Assembly (NCBI GenBank): GCA_046294625.1
Contig: JBKBKN010000020.1
Coordinates: 1-64,000, forward strand
Reading direction: 5' to 3'
Source of the DNA: Flavobacteriales bacterium
GTDB lineage: Bacteria; Bacteroidota; Bacteroidia; M30B66
DNA length: 64,000 bases
Below are positions 6,465 to 56,385 of this stretch, in pieces. Under the pieces are notes generated by a model. That model searched no databases. It had not been told where the DNA came from and saw only the letters and a list, made by a program, of their open reading frames with translations. Each line of letters opens with the position of its first letter. The stretch's first letter is position 1. A program made the translations under genes and the position numbers.

Positions 6465-6818
6465 ATGGAATTACTCTTAGCCATCATGATTGGAATTTTG
6501 TATGCTTCTGGGCTGTATATGATCATGCGGCGAAGTTTGGTTAAAATTATTATTGGTTTGATTCTGTTGGGAAATGGAGCTAATATTTTAATTTTTCTTT
6601 TGGGTAGAATAGCCAAAGGCAAACCGCCAATCATTCCAGAAGCATCGAAAGTTTTCACAGATGTGTATGCCGATCCGTTGCCTCAAGCACTGATTCTCAC
6701 TGCCATTGTAATTAGTTTTGGCCTTCAGGCTTTTGCCATAGTACTCATCAAGCGGGTGTATAGAGTCGTTGGAACCGATGATCTTGACCAGATTAATCAG
6801 AAAGGGGAGGAAATATGA
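6465..6818 (+). CDS. mrpC: Na+/H+ antiporter Mrp/Mnh subunit C (NuoK-like)
   Basis: 117 aa with 3 TM helices, NuoK/MnhC-like, in position directly after mrpB. Confidence 0.7.
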
Positions 6819-8332
6819 CGGAGAATCTCATCATCCTTCCTGTGATTTTTCAATTGGCATTGGCTGTGCTATTGATTTTCTTTTGGAATAGAGTCAATAC
6901 TCAAAAGTACATCTCTGTTATTGGAAGCGCGATTGCTTTGGGCATTTCGATATGGTTGTTTCATACTTTATGGAATGGACCAATCCTGATCATGCAAGCC
7001 GCAGGTTGGAAAGCCCCTTTTGGAATCTCTTTTGTCGTCGATGCCTTAGCTGCGACATTGGTGCTGCTTACTTCGATAGCCGGTTTTGCGGTGAGCATTT
7101 TTTCAACGGTTACCATTAGCAAACTCAGAATGCAGTTTGGCTATTTTCCTATACTACATTTCCTTTTGATGGGTTTAATGGGAGCTTTCCTCACGGGTGA
7201 TATTTTTAATCTCTATGTTTGGTTTGAGATTATCATCATAGCATCCTTTGTCATGATGACATTAGGAGGAGAAAAACCTCAGATCGAAGGTGCGATTAAT
7301 TATGTTACGATGAACTTGCTGGCATCAGCCATTTTCTTAACAGCAATAGGGGTATTGTATGGCTTAGCCGGTACTTTGAACATGGCAGACCTCGCCATTC
7401 AAGTGGCAAAAATCGAAAATCGCGGTTTGGTAAATGTAACTGCAATTTTGTTTCTGGTAGGTTTTGGGATTAAATCAGCCGTTTTTCCGCTTTATTTCTG
7501 GCTCCCGGCATCTTATCATACTCCACCATCAGCTGTTGCGGCTATCTTCGGTGGTTTATTGACTAAAGTTGGGGTATATGCACTACTTCGTGTATTCTGT
7601 CTTATTTTTATTCCTGATAACTTCATGCTGAATTTGATGTTGTCTATTGCTGTTTTCACAATGATTTCAGGAGCATTAGGCGCTTTGATTCAGCAAAACA
7701 TTCGCAAGCTGTTTTCTTATCTGATTATTTGTCATATAGGTTTCATGATTGCAGGTCTTGGCATGTTTACGGAATGGGCAATTGTTGGATCTGTATTTTA
7801 TCTCATTCATGATGTTATTGCCAAAACCAATGTATTCCTAATTTTAGGAGTTATTTTCAAAATAAAGGGAAGCTACAAACTCAAAGAATTGGGCGGACTT
7901 TACAAATCCTATCCCACACTTTCCTTATTAATGGCTTTGGCTTTGTTTTCCTTGGTAGGAATCCCTCCTTTATCTGGTTTTTGGCCGAAACTCTATTTGT
8001 TTGAAGCCGGATTTACGAATGAACAGTATTGGATCATCGGCAGTGTATTATTTGCCAGCTTTATCACTTTATGGGTGGTAGCAAAGTTTTGGGCGGAAGC
8101 TTTCTGGAAACCCTACACCGACAGGCATGAGTTGGTAGATGAATTTATTTATTACAACGAGCTGAGACCTTCCAAGAAAATATTGATGATTGCCCCTGTA
8201 GTTATGCTTACTGCAGTGTCACTCTATATTGGACTTGGAGCAGAAAATATCATTGTATTATCAAAGAAAATAGCACATGAACTCATGCATACTGAAATTT
8301 ATATTGATGCTGTACTGAGTGGACGACAATAA
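6815..8332 (+). CDS. mrpD: Na+/H+ antiporter Mrp/Mnh subunit D (NuoN/NuoL-like)
   Basis: 505 aa with ~14 TM helices and the complex-I antiporter-like subunit pattern (WLPxAxxxPxPxSAxxxxxLLTKxGxYxLLR). Overlaps mrpC by 4 nt. Confidence 0.8.
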
Positions 8333-8334
8333 TT

Positions 8335-8817
8335 TTGAATATGGTCAAAAAACTGTTAATGAACATTTTGCTCACCCTTGTTTGGATGGCGCTCACCGGC
8401 AAATTCTCCGGAGCCAATTTCCTGTTTGGGCTTGTTCTGAGTTTCTCCATCATGTGGATTATAAGCAGAAATGATGAAGATCAACGGTATTTCAGAAGAC
8501 TTCCCGCCATTATTAATTTGATCTTCTTTTTCATCTATGAGTTAATCAAGGCCAATATTCAGGTCGCTTATGATGTGATTACCCCTAAGTTTTATATGCA
8601 ACCGGGTATAGTGGCGATACCGCTTACAGTGGAAACCGATTTGGAAATTACCCTGCTCGCTAATATGATCACACTTACCCCGGGCACTTGCAGTCTGGAT
8701 GTGTCGCCTGATAAAAAGATATTGTACGTACATGCTATGTATATCAACGATAAGGAGTCCTTTATTGAAAGTATAAAAAACGGATTTGAGCAAAAAATTT
8801 TACGAATCATGCGATAA
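8335..8817 (+). CDS. mrpE: Na+/H+ antiporter Mrp/Mnh subunit E
   Basis: 160 aa with two N-terminal TM helices and a soluble tail, at the canonical position in the mrp order. Confidence 0.65.
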   Translation: MNMVKKLLMNILLTLVWMALTGKFSGANFLFGLVLSFSIMWIISRNDEDQRYFRRLPAIINLIFFFIYELIKANIQVAYDVITPKFYMQPGIVAIPLTVETDLEITLLANMITLTPGTCSLDVSPDKKILYVHAMYINDKESFIESIKNGFEQKILRIMR

Positions 8818-8843
8818 ACTCTGTAAACATAATTTGACAGCGA

Positions 8844-9116
8844 ATGAATCTCTATGACTTTCTTTATTACATTATCTTACCGGCATTAAGCATATCCATA
8901 ATGCTGGTGTTCGTTCGTTTTATCAAAGGTCCTGATATTGTAGATCGGGTATTAGCGCTCGACCTAATCATCACCATTGGTTTAGGTCTGATAACATGCT
9001 ACAGCATCATTTATGATCAACCTACCTTTTTGGATATTGGACTGATATTAGCTTTGATTGCCTTTCTCGGCACCATTGCATTTTCTTATTATCTTGAAAA
9101 ACGTGCTAAAAAATGA
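8844..9116 (+). CDS. mrpF: Na+/H+ antiporter Mrp/Mnh subunit F
   Basis: 90 aa with 3 TM helices, in the canonical mrpF position. Confidence 0.65.
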   Translation: MNLYDFLYYIILPALSISIMLVFVRFIKGPDIVDRVLALDLIITIGLGLITCYSIIYDQPTFLDIGLILALIAFLGTIAFSYYLEKRAKK

Positions 9117-9460
9117 GAGATCTGTTAATCATGATACTATGTGGCTCCGGCACCTTATTTATTTTATTGGCCGCAATTGGCATGTTAAGAATGCCTGATT
9201 TTTACACTCGCACATCGGTAACCACCAAGGCTGTTACTTTAGGTTTAGGATTAATTCTAGCTGGTGCAGCTGTTTATTTTTCACAGATAGATGTTACATC
9301 AAGAGTGTTAGCCATTATTCTCTTTTTGATTTTAACTGCGCCGGTTGGCGCCCATATGATTGGGAGGGCAGCTTATCGCACCGGCAGTAAAATGTGGGAA
9401 AAGTCCGTTATGGATGATATGAAAGATGTGTATCAAGACAATCAGTCAAAGGAGAAATAA
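9113..9460 (+). CDS. mrpG: Na+/H+ antiporter Mrp/Mnh subunit G
   Basis: 115 aa with 3 TM helices plus a charged C-terminal tail. Overlaps mrpF by 4 nt. Confidence 0.65.
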   Translation: MRDLLIMILCGSGTLFILLAAIGMLRMPDFYTRTSVTTKAVTLGLGLILAGAAVYFSQIDVTSRVLAIILFLILTAPVGAHMIGRAAYRTGSKMWEKSVMDDMKDVYQDNQSKEK

Positions 9461-9486
9461 CAAATTCTTCTCGCACAAAATTTCTT

Positions 9487-12400
9487 TTAACGTTTCAAAG
9501 TCACCGTTCCTGTTCGGGTAAAGAATTGTCCGCTTTCCCAGGTGAGTTCAATCAAATAGGCATAAACGTCAATCATGGCAGGTCTGCCATCGGGTCTTTT
9601 TCCATCCCAAACATCGCCCAGTTCGGTGGCATGTGCAAGCAGAATGCCTCTACGGTCATAAACATATACGTCTATTTTACGTATTCCTGTACCAAAAACC
9701 TGCAATACATCATTTAAGCCATCAGCGTTTGGTGTGAAAGTATTTGGGATATAAACAGCCCTTTTATCTAAAATACAAATCCTTTCGGTGTGGTCACTTT
9801 TGCAGCCATTTGCGTCGAAAATCAAAAGGTTAACATTAAACTCGCCTGGTTCGGTAAATTCATGGGAAGGAGTAAAAAAAGGTTCGTAAGAGTAGGTGGT
9901 TTGATCTCCCATATCCCAACTTCCTGTCAAACCACCGGAGCTTTGATCTATCAGGCTAATAAATCGCTGATCGAACTCAAGACATTGGGCTGAATTTGGG
10001 TTAATTAAAAAGTTTGCAATCACCGGAGGATGAGCAGGTAGAGTGAAGATAGTATCTTTTTTACAACCTGAAACCGGATCTGAGATTTCTAAGCCATAAG
10101 GGGTGCCAGCTTGTCCATTCAAGGTGTTACCTGTGAATGTTTGATTGCCTCTTCGCCAGATGATATTGAGATTGGGATCGCTTATTTCAATACTGGCCGT
10201 TGAAGGATCGCCAAAACACTTGATATCGTTAACAGTGAGCGTATATTCGATTGCATTGGCTACAAATATGGCGAAGGTATCGTTCACTACGGTGCAACCA
10301 TCACTAATGGTGACAATGTAATTTGTGCTTGTTGACGGATTAACGATTTGTTGCGAAACCGCAGGAAGTTCGTTGTTCCACTGAAAGGTGATTAAGCTTC
10401 CATTGCCGCCAAAAGCATTGACTTGAATATTGGCAAAATCACCTGCACATAGTGTGTCTCTGCTAATTACAGATGTAAAGTTAACACGCGGGAATACCAG
10501 AACATCTGTGGTACTTGTAGCCTGACAGAATCCTTCGCCTATTATATACTGTATTGTATGTAATCCGGCATCAGCAAGCAATGGATTGAAGCTATTTGCT
10601 ATCACTCCCGGCCCACTAAATATCCCGCCCGGAGGCTGAGCGGAGAGAGCAATCAATGTATCTCTAAAACACTGCGGATCAACAGGAGAAATGATGGCTG
10701 CTGCAAAATTACCTACTTCTATAGCGATTTGGTCTGTGCACCCGTTTGGGCTAGTATAGGTGATGATATGGCTCCCTACTCCGGCAACCGTTGGTGCGAA
10801 AATTCCCAAATCTGAGTTAGTAATTCCTGTCCCGCTGAACTGCCCACCTGCTGCATAATCTAGTAATGGGAGCTCAAAAGGGGGATTTAACTCACAAACA
10901 TTTTCTACCGCAATCAGCATTTCATCATACACGATCACTTGCATAGTGTCAGAACAAGTATTGGCTGAGTAGGTTAAAGTGAAAACCCCTTGACCGGCTA
11001 TTTCAGGATTAAAAAGAAAGGTGTTTTGCGGACCTGTTAGAGTACCTGCCCCTGTCCATACTCCGTTTGGAGGGACTATACTTGTATTATCATTGTTTAA
11101 ATTCAAAGCATCATCACCTACACAAAAGCGTAGCAGATCTTCTCCAATTACAGTTTGGCGCACTCTGGCTATAATCTGGTCTTCGCAACCATTGGGTAGG
11201 GTATAGGTCAAAGTAGCATTTGCATTGCCATTGTTAAAGGCTGGATTAAATAATCCATTGATAGGATCAATAATACCATTGCCTGACCAGACTCCGCCTG
11301 TTGGTGAAAACCCAGTAATTTGGATGAACTCTTGAGAAGGGCAAGCAAAGAAATTACTTCCGGCATCAATGGCTTTTACAAAAATGTCAAATTGGGCATT
11401 GCATCCGTTTATGGCATATGTAATCAGGTGCAAGCCACCACCAGCTTCATCGGCCGAAAATATTCCTGAAAAAGGATCTGTGATACCGTTGCCAGTCCAA
11501 ACGCCTCCTGGTGGTTGAAGTGCAAAAGCAAACTCCTGTTCTGATTGACAAATGCTATCTGTCTGAGCAGGAACATTGGTAATGAAATCCACAAATACCA
11601 TTTTTACATCGCTACAACCATTGAACGTGTAGGTGATTTCATAAGCGCCCTGAGCCTGTGGGTCAAACAAACCAGTGCTATTGGTAAATAGGCCACTCCA
11701 TGTTCCGCCTTCGGGAATGTTTCCAGTCAGTTGAAAAGGGTCAGATCCGGGGCAAGCCGCTTCATCAAACCCTGCTGAGATAGGCCTAAGATCAATAAAC
11801 ATAGTATCTGCGCAAAAAAAGTTGCTGCTGTAGAAGTAGGCATATTGAATGAGGTTCAAGCCAGGGTTGGCGCTATCTGGGTCAAAGATTCCTTGCACTT
11901 GGTCTATTATGCCGCTCCCCGACCAAAAGCCATCCAATGGGGAGCCGTTGAGTTGAAGGGGATCGTCTGACTGGCATAGCGTAAGGTCATTTCCTGCAAT
12001 TGTTTTTGGGAATAGGGTGATACTTTTTGAAGCCGAAGCCGGAAGGGCGGGAGATGTGTCATCAACAGTTACAGTGTAGGTGGTGTTGGAAACTGGACAA
12101 ACCAAATGTGGACCAAATGTGGGTGGAAGGCCGTTACTCCATGAAAAGGTATATTGCCCATTGCCTCCGGACGCCAAAGCACTGAGATAGGTGCATTGAT
12201 CAGCGCATAAACTGTCCTGCTCAGCAATTATGATAACTTCAATTGGACAGTCGAATATATCGATTTGAAAAGTTCTTTGAAATAACCATAAACTATCACA
12301 GGCATCAAGGTGTCGGTAAGTGTAAACCACCTGATAGCTTCCACCTACTGTCAAGCCCGGATTTAGCGTGAGCGAAGCTCCTGATGTTAAGCCCTGATTG

Positions 12401-13002
12401 CAAGATAATGCTTGTGCATTCACCACTGTTGCATTGGCGGGTCCGCTAATCGAAAAAACGCCTGCATAAACGGAATCGCATTTTACAGGATTGCTGAAAT
12501 TGACATTGATCACCGTCTGATTGCATGCAGGCAAGGCTGTGGAGGCAGTAATATTAGGTGGTATGGGTGGAATGATTTCTGTGCTCCAATCGGCTATCCA
12601 ACCAAAACAGGCCACATTGGCATCGCTCCTGAAATTCAAGGTCATGCAGCCACTCAACGCGGTCACGGGAGCAGGAATGCTATTGCCGGTGAGCGTTGGT
12701 CCTAGTTGTGGCGAGTTCATGTTAGGACCGTCAAATATCCTGAGCGAGTCAAAGCCGGCTTCTACACAAAAACTAAGGAAATTTAAGGTGATTGGGGCTG
12801 TTTGATTTACACAAATGGTAAAAGTGAGATTGGCATTATGGGAGTAATTTGCTCCAGGACCGCCATTGTCAAATAATCGACCTTTGCACTCAGTCACAAT
12901 GGTATCGCGCATGTTGAAGCTCATTTGCGAAAAACCCATTGATATGCTCCAAGATGAAATGAGCAAAAGCAGCAATAAACGATATCGAATGCAATGGCTC
13001 AT
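9487..13002 (-). CDS. Giant T9SS cargo protein: N-terminal CUB domain, seven tandem ~70-aa Cys-pair repeats, SprB-type repeats, and a type-B (gliding-motility-associated) C-terminal sorting domain
   Basis: Signal peptide MSHCIRYRLLLLLLISSWSISMGFSQ. Residues 39-140 have the CUB spacing (C...GxxxSPxYP-like...C-W-x-I...F-x-S-F-x-x-E...C-x-F-D-S-L-R-I-F-D-G...C). Repeats follow the pattern C-x-P...GG-x-W-S/T-G-x-G-I-x-D-P...G-x-F-x-P...G-x-H-x-I-T-Y-T...G-C. The C-terminus YIPNTFTPNADGLNDVLQVFG...DRRGILL...WDG matches the TIGR04131 / CHU_C-type T9SS domain. Confidence 0.75.
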   Translation of the reverse strand: MSHCIRYRLLLLLLISSWSISMGFSQMSFNMRDTIVTECKGRLFDNGGPGANYSHNANLTFTICVNQTAPITLNFLSFCVEAGFDSLRIFDGPNMNSPQLGPTLTGNSIPAPVTALSGCMTLNFRSDANVACFGWIADWSTEIIPPIPPNITASTALPACNQTVINVNFSNPVKCDSVYAGVFSISGPANATVVNAQALSCNQGLTSGASLTLNPGLTVGGSYQVVYTYRHLDACDSLWLFQRTFQIDIFDCPIEVIIIAEQDSLCADQCTYLSALASGGNGQYTFSWSNGLPPTFGPHLVCPVSNTTYTVTVDDTSPALPASASKSITLFPKTIAGNDLTLCQSDDPLQLNGSPLDGFWSGSGIIDQVQGIFDPDSANPGLNLIQYAYFYSSNFFCADTMFIDLRPISAGFDEAACPGSDPFQLTGNIPEGGTWSGLFTNSTGLFDPQAQGAYEITYTFNGCSDVKMVFVDFITNVPAQTDSICQSEQEFAFALQPPGGVWTGNGITDPFSGIFSADEAGGGLHLITYAINGCNAQFDIFVKAIDAGSNFFACPSQEFIQITGFSPTGGVWSGNGIIDPINGLFNPAFNNGNANATLTYTLPNGCEDQIIARVRQTVIGEDLLRFCVGDDALNLNNDNTSIVPPNGVWTGAGTLTGPQNTFLFNPEIAGQGVFTLTYSANTCSDTMQVIVYDEMLIAVENVCELNPPFELPLLDYAAGGQFSGTGITNSDLGIFAPTVAGVGSHIITYTSPNGCTDQIAIEVGNFAAAIISPVDPQCFRDTLIALSAQPPGGIFSGPGVIANSFNPLLADAGLHTIQYIIGEGFCQATSTTDVLVFPRVNFTSVISRDTLCAGDFANIQVNAFGGNGSLITFQWNNELPAVSQQIVNPSTSTNYIVTISDGCTVVNDTFAIFVANAIEYTLTVNDIKCFGDPSTASIEISDPNLNIIWRRGNQTFTGNTLNGQAGTPYGLEISDPVSGCKKDTIFTLPAHPPVIANFLINPNSAQCLEFDQRFISLIDQSSGGLTGSWDMGDQTTYSYEPFFTPSHEFTEPGEFNVNLLIFDANGCKSDHTERICILDKRAVYIPNTFTPNADGLNDVLQVFGTGIRKIDVYVYDRRGILLAHATELGDVWDGKRPDGRPAMIDVYAYLIELTWESGQFFTRTGTVTLKR

Positions 13003-13463
13003 TCTCTAATGATAAGTATAGGCGTGGTTTGTATGGTTTGACTCCAATTGTTGGCGCGGTCGCGCAATTTGATCGAAAAGGTGGTTTGCTCCTGATTGCC
13101 GTTGCCAAAGAGAAAAGTCGGCTTCATTCTTATAAAAAGTTCTCCTTGTATGGATAAATTCTGCAAATCAGGAGTTAATGGCTGCACATGAAACAGATCG
13201 GCTTGCTGCAGCCTTGCATCTTGCACCCAAATAGCAGGTTCATCAGGGTCTTCAAAGCCAATGTCTCCATCCTGATCTTCATAGCGTATGCGAATTATCA
13301 CGGAATCGCGAAATTGAACAACCGTGTCAGGCGTGATGGAAATAAAGTTGATAACCGGTGCAGTGCCTGCAGCCGTTTCTTCTTTTTTACAAGATGAAAT
13401 CATTGTGATAAGCATAATGAATAGTGAAGATAATGCGAAATGTTTCACAAGTTGGTACATCAA
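12999..13463 (-). CDS. Small lipoprotein, hypothetical
   Basis: Lipoprotein signal with lipobox ...ITMISSCKKEE. Has 4-nt ATGA overlaps with both neighbours. Confidence 0.5.
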   Translation of the reverse strand: MMYQLVKHFALSSLFIMLITMISSCKKEETAAGTAPVINFISITPDTVVQFRDSVIIRIRYEDQDGDIGFEDPDEPAIWVQDARLQQADLFHVQPLTPDLQNLSIQGELFIRMKPTFLFGNGNQEQTTFSIKLRDRANNWSQTIQTTPILIIRE

Positions 13464-14401
13464 TTTCTTTCTAGGGAATAATATTGTTTTACGTGAGCTG
13501 CACTTCCATTATTAGGCATTTCAATTGTAGCGTCATTTTCATTTACTTTAATTTGAAGCCGGACATAAGAAAGATTCGAAGGAAGCTGATTGACATTCAC
13601 CGTTATTTTAAAGGAGTAGGGCATGGGATTGCCTGAGAAACCAGGCCAGTTTTGAGTGCTTGCAATTTGAAGAGATTGACCCGCGCTTTGCGGAAAATTA
13701 TTAATATCGCTCGAAAAATAGGCTTGATTGAAAGCTAAATCGGACGCAGAAGAATTTCCGCTAACTATCGCAAACCATAAATCAATCGAGCTCACTCCTG
13801 TAGGTATTTGAATGGCGCTATTTTGAGTTGATCGGGAAAGTGCTTGATTGCTTCCGGGCAAGGTAGCCACCATTCCCGTTAATTGGATGGGTGCGGCTGC
13901 TTGTTGCGGGGTGTTGCCAAAAATATCACGTGCTCCATTTTGAATCCAGTTGTAGATATTACTGATGTATTCCTGATTTTTCGCTTCCCAGTCTGAATCC
14001 GGCTCTATCGATAGGGGCATAATACCCGATTGGCCGTCAATATCTTCAATTAAGCGTTTATAGAATTGCGACAATTGAACATTTCCCGGAATGACTCTGT
14101 AGGTGTAAATACCCTGCGGATTGTTTTTAATCACGGGATGATAAACTAAAGTATTGTATGATGATTCCACGGTGCGAAAGTCAGGCTCAAAGGTTCCATC
14201 GTGGCAACCTGAATTGGCACAGGTAGGTTTTAAAATTCTTTGATGGATTCCTGCAATGGAGTTTGGATCAATCGTTGGCTCTCCATTGTTTCCGTTGCCA
14301 TTGTTATTGTTTGATAGACTATATGGATTAATATATTCTTCCTTTTTACAGGAAGTAATTACTATCAATAAGATCAGACCTATGGATGCAATGATTTTCA
14401 T
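13460..14401 (-). CDS. Lipoprotein with CX3CH motif (possible haem- or metal-binding, PSCyt-like)
   Basis: Lipobox LLIVITSCKKEE and a poly-N/G linker, then RILKPTCANSGCHDGTFEPDF. Has 4-nt overlaps on both sides. Confidence 0.45.
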   Translation of the reverse strand: MKIIASIGLILLIVITSCKKEEYINPYSLSNNNNGNGNNGEPTIDPNSIAGIHQRILKPTCANSGCHDGTFEPDFRTVESSYNTLVYHPVIKNNPQGIYTYRVIPGNVQLSQFYKRLIEDIDGQSGIMPLSIEPDSDWEAKNQEYISNIYNWIQNGARDIFGNTPQQAAAPIQLTGMVATLPGSNQALSRSTQNSAIQIPTGVSSIDLWFAIVSGNSSASDLAFNQAYFSSDINNFPQSAGQSLQIASTQNWPGFSGNPMPYSFKITVNVNQLPSNLSYVRLQIKVNENDATIEMPNNGSAAHVKQYYSLERN

Positions 14402-15792
14402 ATTCTGTCAAATAATGATTGAGAGCCACCTTGCAGAAATCCCGATGATAATACTTCTTGTTTAACACCCAGGATTTCTGAAATAGTTGGCACGCCATCA
14501 GATGTAAGTCCAATAGGATTATTTTCACTACCTATTGAAAGATTTGAAGGCACATTTGGTCCTGCCATGATTCCAAAAACTCTTTCCGCATTAGCATCGC
14601 TATGATCATAGGCAAACCAGTCATTTTGATCGCGAATGGGATTATGATTCAAGTTTCTTCCACACTCAGGCATGGCAATGATGATGGTATTTCCTGCCAT
14701 CTCGGGCACCTGAGTTTGAATGAAATTCCAAAGGTGACCAACCGCATGATCGGCACGGTGCAATGCCCTTAAATAGCTTGTAAAATTGCTGTGACAACCA
14801 TCAACGTCGTTCATGTTGATTACAGTTAGATTGGGCTTAAACCAACGAAGCAGCTCACAAGCAAAACCGACTGTTCGCGTGTCGTTTGTATCGTTGACCC
14901 CGGGGAAAGGGATAGCTTGCTGTTGCACCCTGGTAAATACTGAATTCATGAATTGTTTGATATTGTATTTCTCCTCGTCAGTGTTACCTAATGCATCTAA
15001 TCCTGTTCCCATTCTATCGAAACTATTGTCGAGAAAAAGTTTCATCTTATAAACCGGATCAAGTTCATATTCCGGGTGATAGGCTTTTGCATTGGCAAGG
15101 TGCATTTGTCCGAGTTGGCCGAATGTGATTCCCGGTGCAAAAAAATTAGCCCCAAACCTAGCTCCATAATCTGGGTGACTGCTGTGATTGAGCAATGGAA
15201 CTGAATTGTTGATGCCATTCCCCACAAACCAAACTTTAGAAGCCGGATAGCCACCATGTCGACGTATGTATTCAAAAATAGTTGGATTTACAGGCTTTTG
15301 TTTCAATCCCTGAGTGGTTACCATACTCCCTTGGAGCAGCTGATTAAGCCCTCCATAATGACCGGTGGATCCAGAACGAACTTCTCTAAATAGCGTGCCT
15401 TGTGTTTGCAGAGTTTGATTGAGTATTTTTGGAATAGGTGTTCCTCCTTCAGCGCCGCCACCTTGATTGGTGCCGAACACTATCTTTTGTGAAGGAGATG
15501 GACCATTGAGCATGTTATGCATGAGGTTCCCTTCGTAGGGCTCTCCTTGACTATCGGCCAAATAGCGCTGTAAAATAGATTCCTGTTGCCTTACACCTCC
15601 TGCAAAAAGTACATAAACAACATGCTCGGCCAATTGACTTCCTGTAGCGGCAAACAATCTCCCACTGGGCAGAATGTAGGGCAGGGTAAATGCACCGGCT
15701 GTGGCAGCAGCTCCTGTTTTGATGAATTTCCTTCTGTTCATGGCTTTTGGTGTAAATGTATCAGTAGAAAAGATATTCGTCAGACAGTGCAA
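14398..15792 (-). CDS. Tat-secreted DUF1501-like protein (sulfatase / alkaline-phosphatase superfamily)
   Basis: Twin-arginine signal MNRRKFIKTGAAATAGAFTLP. It is ~460 aa with an overall pattern reminiscent of DUF1501 (C-terminal MPECGRNLNHN...DHSD). This is a family assignment from memory, not a search. Confidence 0.4.
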   Translation of the reverse strand: MHCLTNIFSTDTFTPKAMNRRKFIKTGAAATAGAFTLPYILPSGRLFAATGSQLAEHVVYVLFAGGVRQQESILQRYLADSQGEPYEGNLMHNMLNGPSPSQKIVFGTNQGGGAEGGTPIPKILNQTLQTQGTLFREVRSGSTGHYGGLNQLLQGSMVTTQGLKQKPVNPTIFEYIRRHGGYPASKVWFVGNGINNSVPLLNHSSHPDYGARFGANFFAPGITFGQLGQMHLANAKAYHPEYELDPVYKMKLFLDNSFDRMGTGLDALGNTDEEKYNIKQFMNSVFTRVQQQAIPFPGVNDTNDTRTVGFACELLRWFKPNLTVINMNDVDGCHSNFTSYLRALHRADHAVGHLWNFIQTQVPEMAGNTIIIAMPECGRNLNHNPIRDQNDWFAYDHSDANAERVFGIMAGPNVPSNLSIGSENNPIGLTSDGVPTISEILGVKQEVLSSGFLQGGSQSLFDRI

Positions 15793-16255
15793 AGGAGTAA
15801 TATACCAATTCAGCTGTCACTTGAGGGTTGGATTGAAGAAAATTTTTGAACCACTGTCGTTCAGCTTCTGTTGGTTTTCTCACAAAAAAACGTTCATAAG
15901 TCTCATCCAAAAAGGAATCGGTTTCGTTACGCATATAATCATTAGAAGGCAATATCACCCCTGGTTGGTTCATAAAGTTGCTGATAATGACTTCACGAGC
16001 CAATTCTTTGTCTCCAATTGATTCCATGCTGTTGATGATTTGCACCAATTGATTACCTGAAAGGGCGGTTTGAAAAAGATTGGTGTACAGAATAGAAATG
16101 TATTGTTCTTTCGTCTTGGGTTTGGTTTTGTTGCCGGAAAAGCCTCTTGCATCCACAGCATTCAGCTCATAAATTCGTTCCGGCTCTTTCTTGCAAGACA
16201 TAATTGCTAGCATGAAAAGCCCCACCCCCAATATTTTAAAAGTTTGCATACTCAT
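15761..16255 (-). CDS. Lipoprotein with DUF1549/DUF1800-like R-x-P-T-x-x-E motif
   Basis: Lipobox LAIMSCKKE. Contains FFVRKPTEAERQWF and ends ALSDEYLFY, the same ending as its upstream neighbour. Confidence 0.4.
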   Translation of the reverse strand: MSMQTFKILGVGLFMLAIMSCKKEPERIYELNAVDARGFSGNKTKPKTKEQYISILYTNLFQTALSGNQLVQIINSMESIGDKELAREVIISNFMNQPGVILPSNDYMRNETDSFLDETYERFFVRKPTEAERQWFKNFLQSNPQVTAELVYYSFALSDEYLFY

Positions 16256-17144
16256 CGCTCATCATCATTTGGGTTTGAATGTGTTGTAGATTTTTATTGA
16301 CAAAAAATGCATTCAGGTATTGATCAATCTCCGCTGTACTTGGTTGTCGCGCCAATAAGGTGGTGTAAAGCCAAATGATGACACCTTGATGGGCTTCACG
16401 TGCATTAATCATGATTTGAATGAAATCTGATTTATTGATTCCAGGCATTTGAAAGAGTGTCCCGGCTTGGTCATTTTCAACCATTTCATAAGCAATTAAA
16501 AACTCAGTTTGTGTGGGAAAACGAAACAGCAAGTCATTAAAGGCTGCATTCACAAAGTTGAAGGCATTCATGTTAATAAAATCATAAATACTATTTTGGA
16601 GCATGTAGGCATACATTTGCATGATATTGATTTCACCTTGCTGATAACGCAGCCTCGATTCAACAACATTTTTAAGGTTATTAGCTTCAAGTAGTGCTTC
16701 CGACGCTGAAACCATATTTCCGCCCAGTGAGTCACTTAGATAGCGCTGGAGAAAAATATTTCTTTCGTCTTGTATATATTGATCTGATGCTCCTTCAAGA
16801 AATCGAATTTTACTCAACTCATAAATTCTTTTGAAGTAAGCCAATTGATATGAACTGTCTCCTTCCACATATTCTGTGGAGGACATCAACATTTCGATAA
16901 GCGACTTTCGGCTTTCATTGCTCAAATTTGCACTTCGCAAACGAGCCACTTCCTGATCCATTTCTATATTATTAGGCTCTCTTCCGATGAGATCTATAAA
17001 TATACGGTTCACATAATTTCTGATTTTCACTGTAGGCACCTTGCTGTAATCAGGTATTTGATTATCGGGCATTACAACAATTTCTTCCTGACATGAAGAG
17101 AAAAGAATCAAACAACCAACCAACACATAGAAAAAGCGCTTCAT
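16236..17144 (-). CDS. Lipoprotein with two copies of the DUF1549/DUF1800-like motif
   Basis: Lipobox ILFSSCQEE. Contains RIFIDLIGREPNNIEMDQ and LLARQPSTAEIDQYLNAF, and ends MSDEYANF. It is the first gene of the coupled operon. Confidence 0.4.
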   Translation of the reverse strand: MKRFFYVLVGCLILFSSCQEEIVVMPDNQIPDYSKVPTVKIRNYVNRIFIDLIGREPNNIEMDQEVARLRSANLSNESRKSLIEMLMSSTEYVEGDSSYQLAYFKRIYELSKIRFLEGASDQYIQDERNIFLQRYLSDSLGGNMVSASEALLEANNLKNVVESRLRYQQGEINIMQMYAYMLQNSIYDFINMNAFNFVNAAFNDLLFRFPTQTEFLIAYEMVENDQAGTLFQMPGINKSDFIQIMINAREAHQGVIIWLYTTLLARQPSTAEIDQYLNAFFVNKNLQHIQTQMMMSDEYANF

Positions 17145-17246: not shown

Positions 17247-17615
17247 CTAATCTCTAAAGGCAAAATAGACCGCCAAAATCAGAAACATAAATGAAATGGC
17301 ATAATTCCAAGTGAGTTTTTCGGATTTAAAAAAGTAAACTGCAATCACAGTAAATACACTGAGCGAAATCACTTCCTGCAGTACCTTAAGCTGAAAAAGA
17401 TTAAAAGGACCACCGTGTCCTTCATGGCCAAGCCTATTGGCAGGTACTTGAAATATGTACTCAAAAAGAGCCAAACCCCAACTAAATAAAATGACCCCAA
17501 GCATCCCCCATTTGTGCAGCCAAGTACTTTCTTTCATTTGCAAATGACCATACCATGCCAATGTCATAAAGATATTAGAAATTATTAATAATGCAATTGA
17601 CCAAATCCCCTTCAT
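17247..17615 (-). CDS. Small DMT-superfamily membrane protein (DUF486-like)
   Basis: 122 aa with 4 TM helices and a half-size EamA-like topology. Confidence 0.35.
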   Translation of the reverse strand: MKGIWSIALLIISNIFMTLAWYGHLQMKESTWLHKWGMLGVILFSWGLALFEYIFQVPANRLGHEGHGGPFNLFQLKVLQEVISLSVFTVIAVYFFKSEKLTWNYAISFMFLILAVYFAFRD

Positions 17616-17626
17616 TTATTCCCGTA

Positions 17627-18472
17627 TTATGAATTCACGTTACTATGTCTTGCATGCGTATCATACCAGCCAGGAGTGGCATTTCGTGTTAGGAATTGCA
17701 CCATTCTTCTCAATATCTTTAGTAAGATAAATCGCTTTATTTTACTGTGGTCACCCCAAAGTTTATATCCAATAAATATGGATTCGTATTTGCTGATAGC
17801 TTGATTTTTATTTAGCCATTTTCTGCCAAGGTCTTTACCAAAAGGCCCGGTTGATCCATGTTCAAAATAATGCCCAAGAAATTTTCCTTCCCCATTTTCT
17901 CTTTTCTCTTTCTGTCGCGTAATATTGCCTTGATTCACAATTTGGAATGCATTATAGCCCAAGGCATCAAAGAGTTGAAATTCGGCCTTAATGTTATCCA
18001 TGCTCACTTTATCAGACTCGATTGAAATGTAATCAGGTTTATTGTCGAAATGCAACAAACTTTTTAGACAAACAGTATCCATTCCTTCAATGTCAATTTT
18101 CATGTAATAAGGGATACCATATAATCTTAGACATTCGGCAAAATCAATCGCTTTTACTTCAATGACTTCACTCTGTGCTCCAAGTTTTACATTACGTTCT
18201 GACCAGTCCTGCACTACTGTGCCCCAAACAGTATTTTTATTGTTTTTGTAAAATCTAACTACATCCCCTGCCTTTATATTTTCAACTATTGCACCTTCTA
18301 CTATCCTGAGTTGACCTGACGAGATTTCTTTTGCAAATTTTTGTTTACAGCTCTTTATTAAATCAGGATCTGCTTCGAAGGCCACCACTTTAAATCCTTT
18401 TCTTAAGTAGTATCCGGTATCTTCTCCTTTATGCAGACCAACATCAAATATCAAATCCTTGTGTTTTGTCAT
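17627..18472 (-). CDS. FkbM-family methyltransferase
   Basis: Methyltransf_21 pattern DLIFDVGLHKGEDTGYYLRKGFKVVAFEADPDLI. The start is reassigned to the internal ATG at 18472 (MTKHKDLIFDVG...), because the track's longer version (to 18721) would overlap the divergent NfeD-like gene and its N-terminus has no homology sense. Confidence 0.55.
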   Translation of the reverse strand: MTKHKDLIFDVGLHKGEDTGYYLRKGFKVVAFEADPDLIKSCKQKFAKEISSGQLRIVEGAIVENIKAGDVVRFYKNNKNTVWGTVVQDWSERNVKLGAQSEVIEVKAIDFAECLRLYGIPYYMKIDIEGMDTVCLKSLLHFDNKPDYISIESDKVSMDNIKAEFQLFDALGYNAFQIVNQGNITRQKEKRENGEGKFLGHYFEHGSTGPFGKDLGRKWLNKNQAISKYESIFIGYKLWGDHSKIKRFILLKILRRMVQFLTRNATPGWYDTHARHSNVNS

Positions 18473-18635
18473 CGTACTTTCTTTGACGCCAAATGTAAGT
18501 GTTAATTCGTAAAAACATGTGTCCAACGAATATGCAAAAAGCAAATTCGACCTTAGTAGTAAAAAATATTGATAACGGGTAACGCTACTTGAAATTTCAG
18601 GTTTTTTCATTTTCTTTGAAACAAAATAATTAACC

Positions 18636-19214
18636 ATGATCGATGCTTTTTGGGAAAGCCTTGACTTATTTGAGAAATTTCTCTGGGCAACAGCAGTTCT
18701 CTTCACGACTATGTTTGTCATTCAAACTTTATTCACCTTCGCATCAGGTGGAGAAGATAGTGCTGTAGGTGAATCTGATGCTTATGTAGAAGGTGATAGC
18801 GGCATAGGATATCAGCTTTTTACGGTACGTAACTTTTTTATTTTTTTCACTATTTTCGGTTGGGTTACACTTGGTTGTTACAAGGAAGGTTTATCATCCT
18901 TGATATCATCATTTATTGGAATTCTGAGTGGTGTGGTTGTGGTGTATCTTATGCTTTGGCTTATGCGTCGAATTTCTACCTTGAAGCAAGATGGAACCTT
19001 GCAATTAAACAATGCTATTCATAAAAATGGAACGGTATACATCCCTGTTCCTCCATCGGGCAAAGGTTTGGGCAAGATTCAAATTATCATTCAAGGATCA
19101 ACAAGGGAACTGGATGCGATTACTTACGAGGATGAAAGCATTTCCACAGGATCACTCGTTACTGTAACCGGGATAAAAGATAACTTATTAATCGTAAAAC
19201 CCTTCAATTCCTAA
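18636..19214 (+). CDS. NfeD-like (YqiJ-type) membrane protein, partner of flotillin
   Basis: Three N-terminal TM helices followed by a ~70-aa OB/beta C-terminal domain (GKIQIIIQGSTRELDAITYEDESISTGSLVTVTGIKDNLLIVKP). Sits immediately upstream of the SPFH gene, as in the E. coli yqiJK arrangement. Confidence 0.6.
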   Translation: MIDAFWESLDLFEKFLWATAVLFTTMFVIQTLFTFASGGEDSAVGESDAYVEGDSGIGYQLFTVRNFFIFFTIFGWVTLGCYKEGLSSLISSFIGILSGVVVVYLMLWLMRRISTLKQDGTLQLNNAIHKNGTVYIPVPPSGKGLGKIQIIIQGSTRELDAITYEDESISTGSLVTVTGIKDNLLIVKPFNS

Positions 19215-19217
19215 CTT

Positions 19218-20828
19218 ATGGATTTTATCATTTTAGCCATACTACTGACCATCATATTTGGTTTTGTAGTCATTTTTTCGCTCATCAAAAGATACAAACG
19301 ATGCCCAAGTGACAGAGTGCTTGTTGTGTTTGGTAAAGTTGGAGCAAATGCCGATGGAACGAGAGCCGCAAAATGTATTCATGGTGGAGCTGCATTCATT
19401 TGGCCTATTATTCAGGATTATGCATTTATGGATCTTACCCCACTTTCACTGGAAGTAAATCTCACCAATGCTCTGAGCCGTCAAAATATCCGGGTTGATG
19501 TTCCTTCTCGATTTACAGTTGCCATCTCCACTGAGCCTGGTGTGATGAATAATGCAGCAGAGCGACTCCTTGGATTGCAACGACAACAAATTCATGACCT
19601 CGCAAAAGATATCATCTTCGGACAGCTCCGTTTGGTAGTTGCCACGATGGACATTGAAGAAATCAACAACAATCGTGATAAGTTCCTGTCTAATGTTGCG
19701 TCAAATGTTGAGGCTGAATTAAAAAAGATAGGTTTGAAACTGATCAATGTTAATGTCACCGACATCAAGGACGAAAGTGGGTACATTGAAGCATTGGGGA
19801 AAGAAGCTGCTGCAAAGGCTATAAATGAAGCCAAAATTTCCGTTGCAGAACAAGAGAAGGTTGGTGAAATTGGTAAGACTAATGCGGAACGTACCAAGGA
19901 AGTTGAAATTGCTGAAACGCTTCGAGATCGGGATGTGCGAATTGCTGAAACAGAAAGAGACCGCGATGTGCAAATGGCGATTGCAAAAAAAGATAAGGAA
20001 GTATTGATTGCGGGGGCTGAACGTGATGAAGCCATCGGTAAAGTAGAAGCTGACAGAGATACCAGAATTAAATCAGCTGACGCTAACGCGAAGGCGGTAG
20101 AAGGGGAGAATACTGCAAAAATTACCATTGCTGACTCTGATGCAAAACGAAGAGAAAAGGAGGCAGAAGCACTTAGAATTGCTGTGGCAGCTGAGAATGT
20201 GCAAAAAGCAAAAGCTCTTGAAGAATCTTATTTAGCAGAACAAAAAGCAGAACATGCAAGAGCAGACAGAGAAAGAGCGTCGCAAGTGGCAAATGTGGTA
20301 GTAACGGCCGAAATTCAAAAGCAAAAAGCAATCATTGAAGCAGAAGCTGAAGCAGAGAAAATACGCATACAAGCTAAAGGGGAAGCAGATGCAACCTATG
20401 CAAAACTCGAAGCAGAAGCCCGTGGTATGTTTGAAATGCTCACCAAACAAGCTCAAGGTTTGGATCAAATTGTAAAAGCTGCAGGCAACGATAGCAAGAA
20501 TGCGGTGCTCCTATTGATTGCCGATAAGCTGCCGGAATTGGTTAGGTTACAATCTGAAGCGATAAAGAATATCAAAATAGATAAAGTAACTGTTTGGGAT
20601 GGCGGGAATAATAATGGAGAAGAAGGAAAAACATCAACGGCCAATTTTCTTTCAGGGATTTACAAGTCTGTGCCCCCGCTAAAGGATGTATTTGATTTAG
20701 CAGGGATGAATTTGCCTGAATATTTGGGGAAAGATAAAGCAGCTAATGGCATTAATTCTAGGAAATCAAGCGACACAGGCATGAATGACGGTGGCGCTAA
20801 GGAAGATGATAATACCACTGAGATTTGA
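19218..20828 (+). CDS. Flotillin-family SPFH/Band-7 protein (YqiK-like)
   Basis: N-terminal TM segment and an SPFH domain (VFGKVG...IHGGAAFIWP...LEVNL). A long EA-rich coiled-coil (AETLRDRDVRIAETERDRDVQMA...; EAEAEAEKIRIQAKGEADA) is typical of flotillins. 536 aa. Confidence 0.8.
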   Translation: MDFIILAILLTIIFGFVVIFSLIKRYKRCPSDRVLVVFGKVGANADGTRAAKCIHGGAAFIWPIIQDYAFMDLTPLSLEVNLTNALSRQNIRVDVPSRFTVAISTEPGVMNNAAERLLGLQRQQIHDLAKDIIFGQLRLVVATMDIEEINNNRDKFLSNVASNVEAELKKIGLKLINVNVTDIKDESGYIEALGKEAAAKAINEAKISVAEQEKVGEIGKTNAERTKEVEIAETLRDRDVRIAETERDRDVQMAIAKKDKEVLIAGAERDEAIGKVEADRDTRIKSADANAKAVEGENTAKITIADSDAKRREKEAEALRIAVAAENVQKAKALEESYLAEQKAEHARADRERASQVANVVVTAEIQKQKAIIEAEAEAEKIRIQAKGEADATYAKLEAEARGMFEMLTKQAQGLDQIVKAAGNDSKNAVLLLIADKLPELVRLQSEAIKNIKIDKVTVWDGGNNNGEEGKTSTANFLSGIYKSVPPLKDVFDLAGMNLPEYLGKDKAANGINSRKSSDTGMNDGGAKEDDNTTEI

Positions 20829-56215: not shown

Positions 56216-56289
56216 TGGCGAGGTAGCTCAGATGGTTAGAGCGCAGGATTCATAACCCTGAGGTCACGGGTTCAACTCCCGTCCTCGCT
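56216..56289 (+). tRNA. tRNA with CAT anticodon (tRNA-Met elongator, or tRNA-Ile2 if lysidinylated)
   Basis: Manual cloverleaf: acceptor GGCGAGG/CCTCGCT (G1-U72 wobble), D-arm GCTC-AGATGGTTA-GAGC, anticodon arm CAGGA-TTCATAA-CCCTG, T-arm ACGGG-TTCAACT-CCCGT, discriminator A. No encoded CCA. Followed by a T-run. Confidence 0.85.
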
Positions 56290-56385
56290 ACTTTTTTCTT
56301 CAATATCCGATTTATTTTCACAGCTTTCTTTTAGCATCTATTTCCCTGTTAGCTTTGCAATGTCATTTGCCCAACAACAGCATAA

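Follow-up and report, generated by a model that had tools for sequence, protein, structure and literature searches.

A cluster of six minus-strand genes (g1 to g6) in the window, which is the whole 64,000-nucleotide stretch of Flavobacteriales DNA analysed here, may represent a conserved Bacteroidota envelope module of the metalloprotein-cytochrome type, a split-up relative of the planctomycete pairs formed by a partner and a DUF1501 protein; we put this reading forward tentatively, as having nearly an even chance of being right. The cluster comprises the following genes:

16236..17144, minus strand: g1, a 302-aa lipoprotein (Cys18) of the DUF4214/phycobilisome-linker type
15761..16255, minus strand: g2, a 164-aa lipoprotein (Cys21), paralogue of g1
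14398..15741, minus strand: g3, 447 aa, DUF1501-related, alkaline-phosphatase fold, true ATG at 15741
13460..14401, minus strand: g4, a 313-aa lipoprotein (Cys18)
12999..13463, minus strand: g5, a small lipoprotein, 153-154 aa long (Cys25 when numbered from the TTG)
9487..13002, minus strand: g6, a 1171-aa T9SS type-B cargo with a Sec signal

In the ORF list, all six reading frames are minus-strand and occupy the positions given by the original prediction, and the lipobox that it expected is present in each of g1, g2, g4 and g5. Among the tight junctions that it described, the ATGA overlaps of g3/g4 (14401/14398) and g5/g6 (13002/12999) are borne out, as is the 20-nt overlap of g1/g2, which shrinks to 14 nt should translation begin at the second ATG. 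Two others had to be corrected. The 32-nt overlap claimed at 15792/15761 is an artefact of the longest, TTG-initiated ORF of g3; 19 nt separate the g2 stop from the ATG at 15741, and the homologues listed for g3 are mostly 440-450 aa long (median 444) and start at the equivalent ATG. The ATGA claimed at g4/g5 (13463/13460) actually reads TTGATG, which gives a 4-nt overlap from the TTG start or a 1-nt overlap from the ATG. Tight junctions are seen in the window and also in loci L002, L003 and L088. The six genes are probably co-transcribed, and their products may be anchored in the outer membrane and assembled together; scans for generic sigma-70 promoters and for terminators stayed at chance level and are uninformative in either direction.

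The gene order recurs in about 70 loci from other species, with protein identities of 32-73%, where naming sources label the products as hypothetical, Tat-signal-domain or DUF1501 family proteins. The expected co-conservation is strongly confirmed by gene neighbourhoods, since g1 and g2 are in place at 70 of the 71 testable loci and g4 and g5 at all 70 (L002-L084 in both cases), and g6 follows g5 in 57 of 58 close loci. The T9SS cargo, which had been counted as part of the original unit, is nevertheless not ancestral: L088 and L089, where g3 identity falls to about 34%, contain g1-g5 without g6, L045 lacks both g1 and g6, and no g6 lies within about 3.5 kb after g5 in L066. Because loci from more distant Bacteroidota carry g1-g5 but no g6, the conserved core consists of five genes. 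The domains of the two downstream products are as follows:

13257-13277, minus strand: conserved DxDGDxG loop of g5, with residues invariant in 29 orthologues
12592-12897, minus strand: CUB domain of g6 (Pfam, 35 bits)
9784-9993, minus strand: PKD domain of g6 (PKD_4, 31.8 bits)
9490-9750, minus strand: CHU_C/type-B CTD of g6 (CHU_C, 42.2 bits; TIGR04131, 40.2 bits)

No Pfam family matched g5. The CUB, PKD and CHU_C/type-B sorting domains identify g6 as the CUB-domain T9SS cargo that had been predicted; its CUB region is conserved in 55 of 56 orthologues, its middle region is Ig-like and Cys-paired, and its PDB matches are the PCPE-1 CUB and ColH PKD domains. Cargo of the SprB/SprF type carries a T9SS type-B CTD and has an adjacent PorP/SprF-like gene (PMC9143113, PMC12618676). 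g6 resembles it in its CHU_C/TIGR04131 domain and in the PorP/SprF gene that stands directly after g6 in 33 of 52 orthologous loci, but differs in sharing its operon with lipoproteins and a Tat enzyme, and no PorP/SprF gene adjoins g6 in the window, nor in its closest clade, none being found anywhere in the 64 kb. One alternative, that g1-g5 assist or anchor g6, as SprC and SprD do for SprB, with no enzymatic role of their own, would fit the nearly constant position of g6 directly after g5 in close loci, often followed by PorP/SprF, and PorP-like proteins are known to hold type-B CTD cargo (PMC9143113). We regard it as unlikely, given that L088, L089 and L045 do without g6, that T9SS cargo is missing from the planctomycete relatives, and that g3 is the most conserved gene (60-73% identity, versus 32-45% for g6), which is the opposite of what an accessory role predicts.

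The most conserved product, g3, contains these elements:

15724-15735, minus strand: RRKF Tat motif
15649-15681, minus strand: invariant PYILPSGRLFA
15577-15606, minus strand: FAGGVRQQES
15349-15363, minus strand: GH128YGG
14791-14802, minus strand: D314-G-C-H317
14653-14670, minus strand: PECGRN
14596-14610, minus strand: YDH380SD

Both RRKF and TIGR01409 (17.1 bits, cut-off 16.7) support the predicted Tat signal. The proposed likeness to DUF1501 stands at the level of remote homology and fold, but not as a direct match: PF07394 (DUF1501) does not match g3 itself at any E<=1 in the Pfam search, whereas hhalign matches the g3 family profile, from one end to the other, to 23 planctomycete proteins positive for PF07394 (probability 100%, E 1.9e-47, 370 columns), and the structure model of g3 has an alkaline-phosphatase fold. 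A narrow g3 profile found nothing among PDB sequences. The top structural neighbours of the model are phosphonate monoester hydrolase, sulfatases (S1), PafA/PhoK and NPP, all of the alkaline phosphatase superfamily, with which g3 shares 13-18% identity, and more distant g3 relatives match Pfam Sulfatase, Phosphodiest and Metalloenzyme. These matches speak for g3 being a conventional nutrient-scavenging phosphatase, phosphodiesterase or sulfatase, with the lipoproteins and g6 capturing substrate as in polysaccharide utilisation. However, Gly48 stands in place of the strand-1 metal Asp and the invariant His128 in place of the Ser/Thr/formylglycine nucleophile, so that ordinary phosphatase or sulfatase activity is unlikely for g3; this Gly/His pair characterizes essentially the whole family, the Asp/Thr pair being kept only in its three most distant members. 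Moreover, g3 has no CxPxR formylglycine motif, the neighbouring loci examined contain no SusC/SusD-like genes, and the association with a cytochrome is kept across two phyla, all of which makes such a hydrolase improbable.

One canonical metal site is retained in g3 (Asp314, His317 and His380, plus Glu359), where the protein would bind a metal. The equivalent of His258 is Cys (Cys360) in the g3 family and variable in the wider family, so a second metal site is uncertain. It is distinctly unlikely that g3 is instead catalytically dead and serves, like PbgA/YejM, for binding or sensing within a structural or sensory envelope complex, since about 150 positions are invariant, including D314, H317, E359, H380 and H128 at the metal-site positions of the superfamily, and export by Tat suggests that a cofactor or metal is inserted beforehand.

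The partner side of the proposed module is represented by g1, g2 and g4. The elements of the first two are:

16962-16997, 16500-16535 and 16323-16358: three (F/Y)xDLxGRxPxxxE-type motifs of g1
16239-16259: C-terminal SDEYANF of g1
15854-15889: motif FFVRKPTEAERQ of g2
15764-15784: C-terminal SDEYLFY of g2

The three motif instances and two SDEYxx(F/Y) C-termini reported previously are present, and are conserved in 35 g1 and 29 g2 orthologues; a third copy in g1, DLLFRFPTQTEF, had been overlooked. g1 exceeds the Pfam cut-off for DUF4214 (24.8 bits versus 23.2) and matches PSCyt2 with E 0.003. Its 35 orthologues match DUF4214 in 22 cases and PBS_linker in 16 and, below threshold, PSCyt2 in 12, PSD1 in three and DUF1800 in one, while 21 of the 29 g2 orthologues match DUF4214. 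The g1 and g2 families align with each other (hhalign probability 88%, E 2.7e-6). The g1 family profile also matches the REP domains of ApcH/ApcE (E 3.4e-5), and g1 shares with phycobilisome linker REP (PF00427)/DUF4214 proteins the elements 'G-I-x-hydrophobic-x-E-F' and 'LGRxP...S-EY'; unlike those linkers, the g1 family is non-cyanobacterial and lipid-anchored, has no phycobiliprotein context and carries its motif three times in 300 aa. g1 and g2 are thus best described as DUF4214/PBS-linker-type proteins. The g2 HMM aligns with the last 125 or so residues, up to the C-terminus, of three planctomycete DUF1501 partners, and a g1 homologue (L090) and a fused planctomycete partner (L086) reach 25.2-25.5 bits for DUF1800 (cut-off 26.1). 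The suggested affinity of the lipoproteins to DUF1549/DUF1800 proteins therefore holds as remote homology, although the PSCyt2, PSD1 and DUF1800 matches stay below threshold, and g1 and g2 are the counterparts of the C-terminal portion of DUF1800/PSCyt2-PSD1 partners, down to the conserved EYxx(F/Y) C-terminus.

For g4, the relevant features are:

approximately 13907-14269, minus strand: N-terminal helical domain, PSCyt1/FoxE-like
14201-14221, minus strand: CANSGCH
14012-14029, minus strand: SGIM128PL
13931-13948, minus strand: WIQNGA
approximately 13463-13894, minus strand: C-terminal beta-sandwich domain

The CX3CH motif attributed to this lipoprotein has the wrong spacing, as C-A-N-S-G-C-H is CX4CH; C-x3-G-C-H, MP and WI..GA are invariant in the family. 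PSCyt1 matches, together with the retrieval of FoxE by sequence as well as by structure (weak statistics, E 0.008), point to a probable monohaem c-type domain of the PSCyt1/FoxE type, with Met128 as its likely distal haem ligand. If this domain were a FoxE-like oxidase, the module could handle metal, for example through Fe(II) or Cu oxidation or uptake at the envelope. We consider this very unlikely: the sandwich matches generic Ig-like folds without significant Foldseek support, the loci examined show no conserved TonB-dependent receptor or metal transporter beside the cluster, and the role of g3 would be left unexplained. Compared with the Fe(II) oxidase FoxE (PDB 5mab), g4 has a single domain with CX4CH and is a lipoprotein with an extra sandwich domain.

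DUF1800/DUF1501 and PSCyt1-PSCyt2-PSD1/DUF1501 pairs occur in Planctomycetes and Verrucomicrobia, and their function is uncharacterised (PMC3542564, bioRxiv 10.1101/150078). Planctomycete DUF1501 gene pairs are abundant. Like the cluster, these pairs combine a Tat-signal protein of the alkaline-phosphatase clan with a partner in which a Cys-His motif like that of cytochromes accompanies a helical module with xxDLxGRxPxxxE; proteins positive for PF07394 can be aligned along the whole of g3, both systems have the C-terminal module and tail seen in g1/g2, and g4 is related to PSCyt1. Unlike them, the cluster has its partner split into lipoproteins g1, g2 and g4, an added small lipoprotein (g5), CX4CH rather than CXXCH, products below Pfam thresholds (g3, g2 and g4), a single copy per related locus examined, a conserved g3 insertion (about 45 aa) missing from the planctomycete clade and, in Flavobacteriales, an attached T9SS cargo. 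Outside Bacteroidota, the sequence closest to g3 (profile E 4e-40; hhalign E 1.9e-47) belongs to a planctomycete triad (L086, L091, L092), in which a DUF4214/DUF1800-like partner is followed by a DUF1501-like protein and then by a multihaem LVIVD cytochrome. The triad shares with the cluster its partner-enzyme-cytochrome order, the CX4CH motif (N-terminal in two of the three partners) and the EYxxY C-terminus (EYQ(N/Y)Y in all three). Its cytochrome, of about 1000 aa with 8-10 haems and LVIVD repeats, contrasts with the monohaem lipoprotein g4, and it is followed by an EF-hand protein, with neither g5 nor T9SS cargo.

In the proposed metalloprotein-cytochrome module, g3 would fold in the cytoplasm, probably gain its metal there and then leave by Tat, and g4 might exchange electrons with g3 or with the substrate of g3; alkaline-phosphatase-fold proteins are not known as redox enzymes. 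The helical g1 and g2 could hold g3 at the membrane, perhaps via their extreme C-terminal EYxx(F/Y) tails, and g5 would be a small beta-rich accessory lipoprotein. The C-x-K-[DE][DE] lipoprotein export signal occurs in 26 of 68 g4 orthologues and in 2 of 63 g2 orthologues, and with such mixed signals the lipoproteins could be exposed on the cell surface and g3 confined to the periplasm, an arrangement that would speak against a direct complex. The Flavobacteriales lineage would then have gained g6, a surface CUB/Ig-like protein exported by T9SS and probably anchored on PorP/SprF where such a gene follows, which most likely serves the module as an outward-facing binding arm.

Six open reading frames (ORFs) on the minus strand span 9487-17144, with coordinates that match the original prediction exactly, and are named here g1 to g6.

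g1, 16236-17144, minus strand, lipoprotein, ORF of 302 aa
g2, 15761-16255, minus strand, lipoprotein, ORF of 164 aa
g3, 14398-15792 (longest ORF), minus strand, Tat-exported DUF1501-like protein, 464 aa
g4, 13460-14401, minus strand, lipoprotein, ORF of 313 aa
g5, 12999-13463, minus strand, lipoprotein, ORF of 154 aa
g6, 9487-13002, minus strand, T9SS cargo with a CUB domain, ORF of 1171 aa

Direct reading of the junctions shows the ATGA overlaps of g3 with g4 and of g5 with g6, as well as the 20-nt overlap of g1 and g2 (14 nt if counted from the second ATG), all of them anticipated in the original prediction. However, the ATGA overlap reported for g4 and g5 actually reads TTGATG, and the 32-nt overlap reported for g2 and g3 is only apparent, arising from the use of the longest ORF. 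The listed homologues of g3, mostly 440-450 aa long (median 444), begin at MNRRKF; this start is the ATG at 15741, 19 nt away from the end of g2. The six genes are thus packed very closely together, and one operon would be the natural reading. Scans of the region for sigma-70 promoters and terminators stayed at chance level, with a tool that does not model Bacteroidota promoters, and an Rfam scan of the window placed no RNA element or riboswitch in the cluster region, its sole match being a tRNA at 56217-56290, outside that region.

A protein identical to the window g3 is encoded in a Flavobacteriales MAG, and a scan in which each species was represented by one genome gave relatives of g3 in at least 579 genomes, which mostly carry a Bacteroidota label. 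Gene order was compared by tblastn, in which the six products, together with PorP/SprF as an additional query, were searched against the best 80 loci plus three others. Both g1 and g2 lie upstream of g3 in 70 of 71 testable loci, g4 and g5 lie downstream of it in 70/70, g6 follows g5 in 57 of 58, and a PorP/SprF gene comes directly after g6 in 33 of 52. The order is kept across the loci of about 70 species, and this synteny rules out a chance adjacency of the six genes. Identity to the window is 60-73% for g3 across the 80 closest loci and lowest for g6 (32-45%), and one copy of the cluster is present per locus examined. Flanking genes show no conservation between the loci compared and, thus, the unit spans from g1 to g6 or to the PorP/SprF gene. 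In the window, subunits D, E, F, and G of an Mrp/Mnh-type cation/proton antiporter (6815-9460, plus strand; domains Proton_antipo_M, MNHE, MrpF_PhaF, and PhaG_MnhG), not conserved with the cluster elsewhere, converge on the g6 end. The stretch upstream of g1 (17247-20828) holds, on the g1 strand, genes for an FkbM-type methyltransferase and for a membrane protein of the DMT_6 (DUF486) type, followed further out by a divergent NfeD-like gene and an SPFH/Band 7 gene; none of these four is syntenic with the cluster in the other genomes compared.

In the distant loci L088 and L089, where g3 is 34% identical, g1-g5 are kept (305, 167, 439, 320, and 151 aa) without g6, while L090 retains g1-g4 and L087 retains g2-g5. 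These distant loci show that the core of the module is g1-g5, and that the T9SS cargo g6 is a near-universal addition within the Flavobacteriales clade. Locus L045, on a complete chromosome (OZ260106.1, 9506-12766), carries only g2-g3-g4-g5, without g1 and g6; a GyrB-like gene occupies the g1 position, and the locus represents a naturally occurring, reduced form of the cluster. The co-occurrence of the CUB cargo with the other genes thus holds in nearly all of the close loci but not in L088, L089, or L045. A rival explanation takes g1-g5 as SprC/SprD-like accessories for g6, and is supported by the near-constant place of g6 after g5 in close relatives and opposed by the distant loci that have the five genes and no g6.

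The assignment of g3 to DUF1501 in the original prediction fails at the Pfam threshold and stands at the level of full-length homology. Against PF07394 (DUF1501; gathering threshold 27 bits), g3 gives no match at E<=1; no listed homologue carries a precomputed Pfam domain, and NCBIfam and Pfam searches of g3 return no family besides the Tat signal. Single-sequence and narrow-profile searches of PDB sequences were both empty, and only the wide family profile (A2) reached NPP and sulfatases there. When 1.8 billion representative proteins were searched by profile, 699 clusters related to g3 were obtained, and 45 full-length distant relatives matched Sulfatase, Phosphodiest, Metalloenzyme, and DUF1501 in similar numbers and with low scores. 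Of the higher-scoring outgroups, P0153 (28.6 bits) and P0170 (28.0 bits) lie just over the 27-bit threshold of DUF1501, and P0154 and P0142 match Phosphodiest or Sulfatase instead. The planctomycete clade of P0153 has PF07394 in about one third of its members and bears the JGI name 'DUF1501 family'; source names for the window proteins and their relatives are hypothetical, Tat-signal-domain protein, or DUF1501 family. When the g3 family (A1) was aligned by hhalign to 23 PF07394-positive planctomycete proteins of that clade (A8), a probability of 100% and an E-value of 1.9e-47 were obtained, with 29% identity over 370 columns. Thus, on this profile-profile alignment, g3 truly belongs to the DUF1501 lineage, as a divergent protein beyond the reach of the Pfam model.

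An N-terminal twin-arginine signal and an alkaline-phosphatase-clan fold are both found in g3, and its core alpha/beta fold contains the DxxH and DH metal ligands of the alkaline phosphatase superfamily. The wide g3 profile aligned to Xanthomonas NPP at E 1.3e-13, which allows the catalytic residues to be mapped.

Catalytic residues of Xanthomonas NPP and their counterparts in g3
NPP D210/H214/H363 (first metal site): g3 D314/H317/H380, all invariant
NPP D257: g3 E359
NPP D54 (strand 1): g3 Gly48
NPP T90 (nucleophile): g3 His128, invariant
NPP H258: g3 Cys360; position taken by H, F, C, or M across the wider family

The strand-1 Asp and the Ser/Thr/formylglycine nucleophile, belonging to the second metal site, are lost in g3, and the Asp/Thr pair is kept only in its three most distant relatives. 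The signature GGxR...H...DxxH...PE(F/H/C)GR...DH is common to g3 and the DUF1501-borderline proteins. A conventional hydrolase is a rival explanation, but the strand-1 Asp and the nucleophile are replaced (Gly48, His128), and this residue pattern argues against ordinary ester hydrolysis. A sulfatase was likewise considered and rejected, as there is no CxPxR motif and His stands at the nucleophile position. In another rival explanation, g3 would be a pseudoenzyme or sensor, against which the invariant residues of the metal site speak.

Two further segments of g3 are conserved outside the metal ligands. Directly after the Tat RRxF motif, the segment PYILPSGRLFA (residues 21-31; 15649-15681, minus strand) is near-invariant, although the h-region and cleavage site of a signal peptide, expected at this place, are variable as a rule; only I23 varies, and it is kept in at least 90% of sequences. 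Such near-invariance at a normally variable position suggests a possible function beyond targeting, e.g., chaperone binding or an uncleaved anchor. Moreover, the Bacteroidota proteins have an insertion of about 45 aa (residues about 57-105; 15427-15573, minus strand) with Y60, Q65, G71, N72, N76, G80, P83, K86, G90, T91, G99, P102, and I103 invariant. This insertion, a low-confidence region in the model, is missing from the planctomycete DUF1501-like clade and may be a contact surface for Bacteroidota-specific partners.

The lipoproteins g1 and g2 had been likened to the DUF1549 (PSCyt2)/DUF1800-type partners of DUF1501 proteins, a likeness for which there are remote matches that stay below threshold, with DUF4214 as the commonest match. 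The window g1 scores 24.8 bits against DUF4214 (PF13946; cut-off 23.2), which is matched by 22 of 35 g1 orthologues, followed by PBS_linker_poly (16/35), PSCyt2 (12/35), PSD1 (3/35), and DUF1800 (1/35), the last three always below threshold; the g1 homologue of L090 scores 25.2 bits against DUF1800 (cut-off 26.1). In the PDB, the g1 family profile finds phycobilisome linker REP domains (ApcH/ApcE; PBS linker PF00427) at E 3.4e-5. DUF4214 is also found in 21 of 29 g2 orthologues, the window g2 being under the cut-off at 21.3 bits, and both proteins are paralogous (hhalign probability 88%, E 2.7e-6). The short motif that they were said to share is real and conserved, with three copies in g1, and so is their common C-terminus, as both end in (S/T)(D/N)EYxx(F/Y) with an invariant Glu-Tyr.

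The g4 protein contains an invariant T-C-A-N-S-G-C-H-D-G, in addition to R-V-x-P, S-G-x-M-P-L, and W-I-x-x-G-A, a combination similar to that of PSCyt1. Its cysteine motif, originally read as CX3CH, is C-x3-G-C-H, i.e., CX4CH, in place of a canonical CXXCH haem-attachment motif, which g4 does not contain; the C-x3-G-C-H motif shows no variation among 30 orthologues and recurs in every distant locus examined (CAVGGCH, CLVRGCH, CANAGCH, CGTSGCH, CATSGCH). The window g4 has no match to PSCyt1 (PF07635), which is matched by 3 of 30 orthologues (best E 3.3e-5), nor to any other Pfam or NCBIfam family. An invariant His67, a near-invariant Met128-Pro129, and a four-helix topology are only indirect signs of a His/Met-ligated haem. 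The g4 protein is read as a probable monohaem c-type lipoprotein, although cytochrome-fold statistics are weak. Among the distant relatives of g3, P0257 (997 aa) shows an apparent C-terminal fusion to a cytochrome c7/c3-like region (sub-threshold Pfam matches at residues 929-979), which, if real, would be a further link between the g3 family and haem proteins.

Three planctomycete sister loci share the order partner, DUF1501-like protein, and LVIVD cytochrome (L086, cytochrome at 9197-12277; L091, 8405-12202; L092, 8223-11210). The partners, of 342-902 aa, have DUF4214/PBS-linker/DUF1800-type matches, that of L086 reaching 25.5 bits against DUF1800 (threshold 26.1) up to the end of both model and protein, and the LVIVD-repeat cytochromes, of about 1000-1265 aa, have 8-10 CXXCH motifs/haems. 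An EF-hand protein or domain accompanies these cytochromes, and a conserved but unnamed triad is apparent. CX4CH stands at the start of two of the three partners, all three end in EYQ(N/Y)Y, and the g2 HMM aligns to the final ~125 residues of these partners, reaching the C-terminus. The g4 HMM does not detect their N-terminal CX4CH region, the link of g4 to the partners being drawn entirely from the motif and alignment A7. From its CX4CH start and its C-terminal match to the g2 HMM, the L086 partner is read as a fusion of a g4-like motif and a g2-like module in one protein beside the enzyme. The Gly/His replacement in the catalytic centre, the cytochrome link, CX4CH, and the partner C-terminal tail are conserved across both phyla. 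Nothing argues more strongly for a joint action of the three components, and for an involvement of electron transfer, than this order of helical partner, enzyme, and cytochrome in both phyla. Metal oxidation or uptake by the module is a rival explanation, which leaves g3 without an explained role.

For g5, Pfam and NCBIfam searches give only noise; its DxDGDxG loop (13257-13277, minus strand), with D62, G65, and G68 invariant and D66 in at least 90%, looks like a calcium-binding loop, albeit with no family match. The g6 protein combines CUB, PKD, and a type-B T9SS sorting domain, the C-terminus scoring 42.2 bits against PF13585 (CHU_C; cut-off 27) and 40.2 against TIGR04131 (cut-off 35), and its CUB region is kept in 55 of 56 orthologues. 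In its middle (9784-12592, minus strand), about seven modules of ~70-75 aa with paired cysteines can be seen by eye, sharing a 'GGxW(S/T)GxGI...F.P...G...I.Y' pattern; BLAST self-comparison found no significant internal repeats, a regular expression caught one of these modules, and no Pfam model covers them. Type-B T9SS cargo is anchored by PorP-like proteins (PMC9143113). A PorP/SprF-like gene is found neither after g6 nor elsewhere in the 64-kb window, and none adjoins g6 in its closest clade (loci L007-L010). Regarding the lipoproteins, the surface export signal of Bacteroidota is C-X-K-(D/E)2-X (PMC5080379), fitted by g4 and g5 (both CKKEE) and partially by g1 (CQEE) and g2 (CKKEPE). Their topology is uncertain, with an LES-like C-x-K-(D/E)2 in a minority of orthologues (g4, 26/68; g5, 17/56; g1, 17/65; g2, 2/63).

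Taken as a whole, the original interpretation is largely right and the finding is real, with corrections to the junctions, the cysteine motif, and the cargo as a core member. In the mechanism proposed here, g3 would be exported by Tat and act as a metalloprotein that keeps one canonical metal site while its catalytic centre is remodelled, g4 would be a dedicated haem lipoprotein serving g3, g1 and g2 would hold g3 at the membrane, g5 would be an accessory protein, and g6 would act as a lineage-specific surface binding arm. This scheme in its entirety is put forward tentatively, with slightly less than even confidence, whereas confidence that the cluster is a conserved DUF1501-lineage module is far higher. 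A weak point of the scheme is that no redox enzyme with an alkaline-phosphatase fold is known.

Planctomycetes and Verrucomicrobia carry highly multiplied genes for DUF1501 proteins and their PSCyt/DUF1800 partners, and the system has been flagged since at least 2012 as important, with its function unexplained (PMC3542564; bioRxiv 10.1101/150078). Full-text literature searches found no paper assigning a function to the DUF1501/PSCyt association. It is conceivable, if rather unlikely, that the DUF1501 lineage, including its Bacteroidota branch, is a non-hydrolytic new class of alkaline-phosphatase-fold metalloproteins with His at the nucleophile position, acting with a dedicated c-type cytochrome (here, a monohaem lipoprotein with the unusual CX4CH) and with a helical partner whose conserved C-terminal EYxx(F/Y) tail would serve for docking. 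The Flavobacteriales cluster ties a DUF1501-type module to a T9SS surface protein, and its separate small proteins, with one cluster per examined locus, would make genetics, pull-downs, and biochemistry much easier than with the large, fused, multi-copy planctomycete genes. If the proposal is true, this split-up version in cultivable Flavobacteriales, e.g., Sanyastnella, with one cluster copy in the examined locus, would be the system for solving the function of a gene family that ranks among the largest uncharacterised ones in Planctomycetes and Verrucomicrobia.
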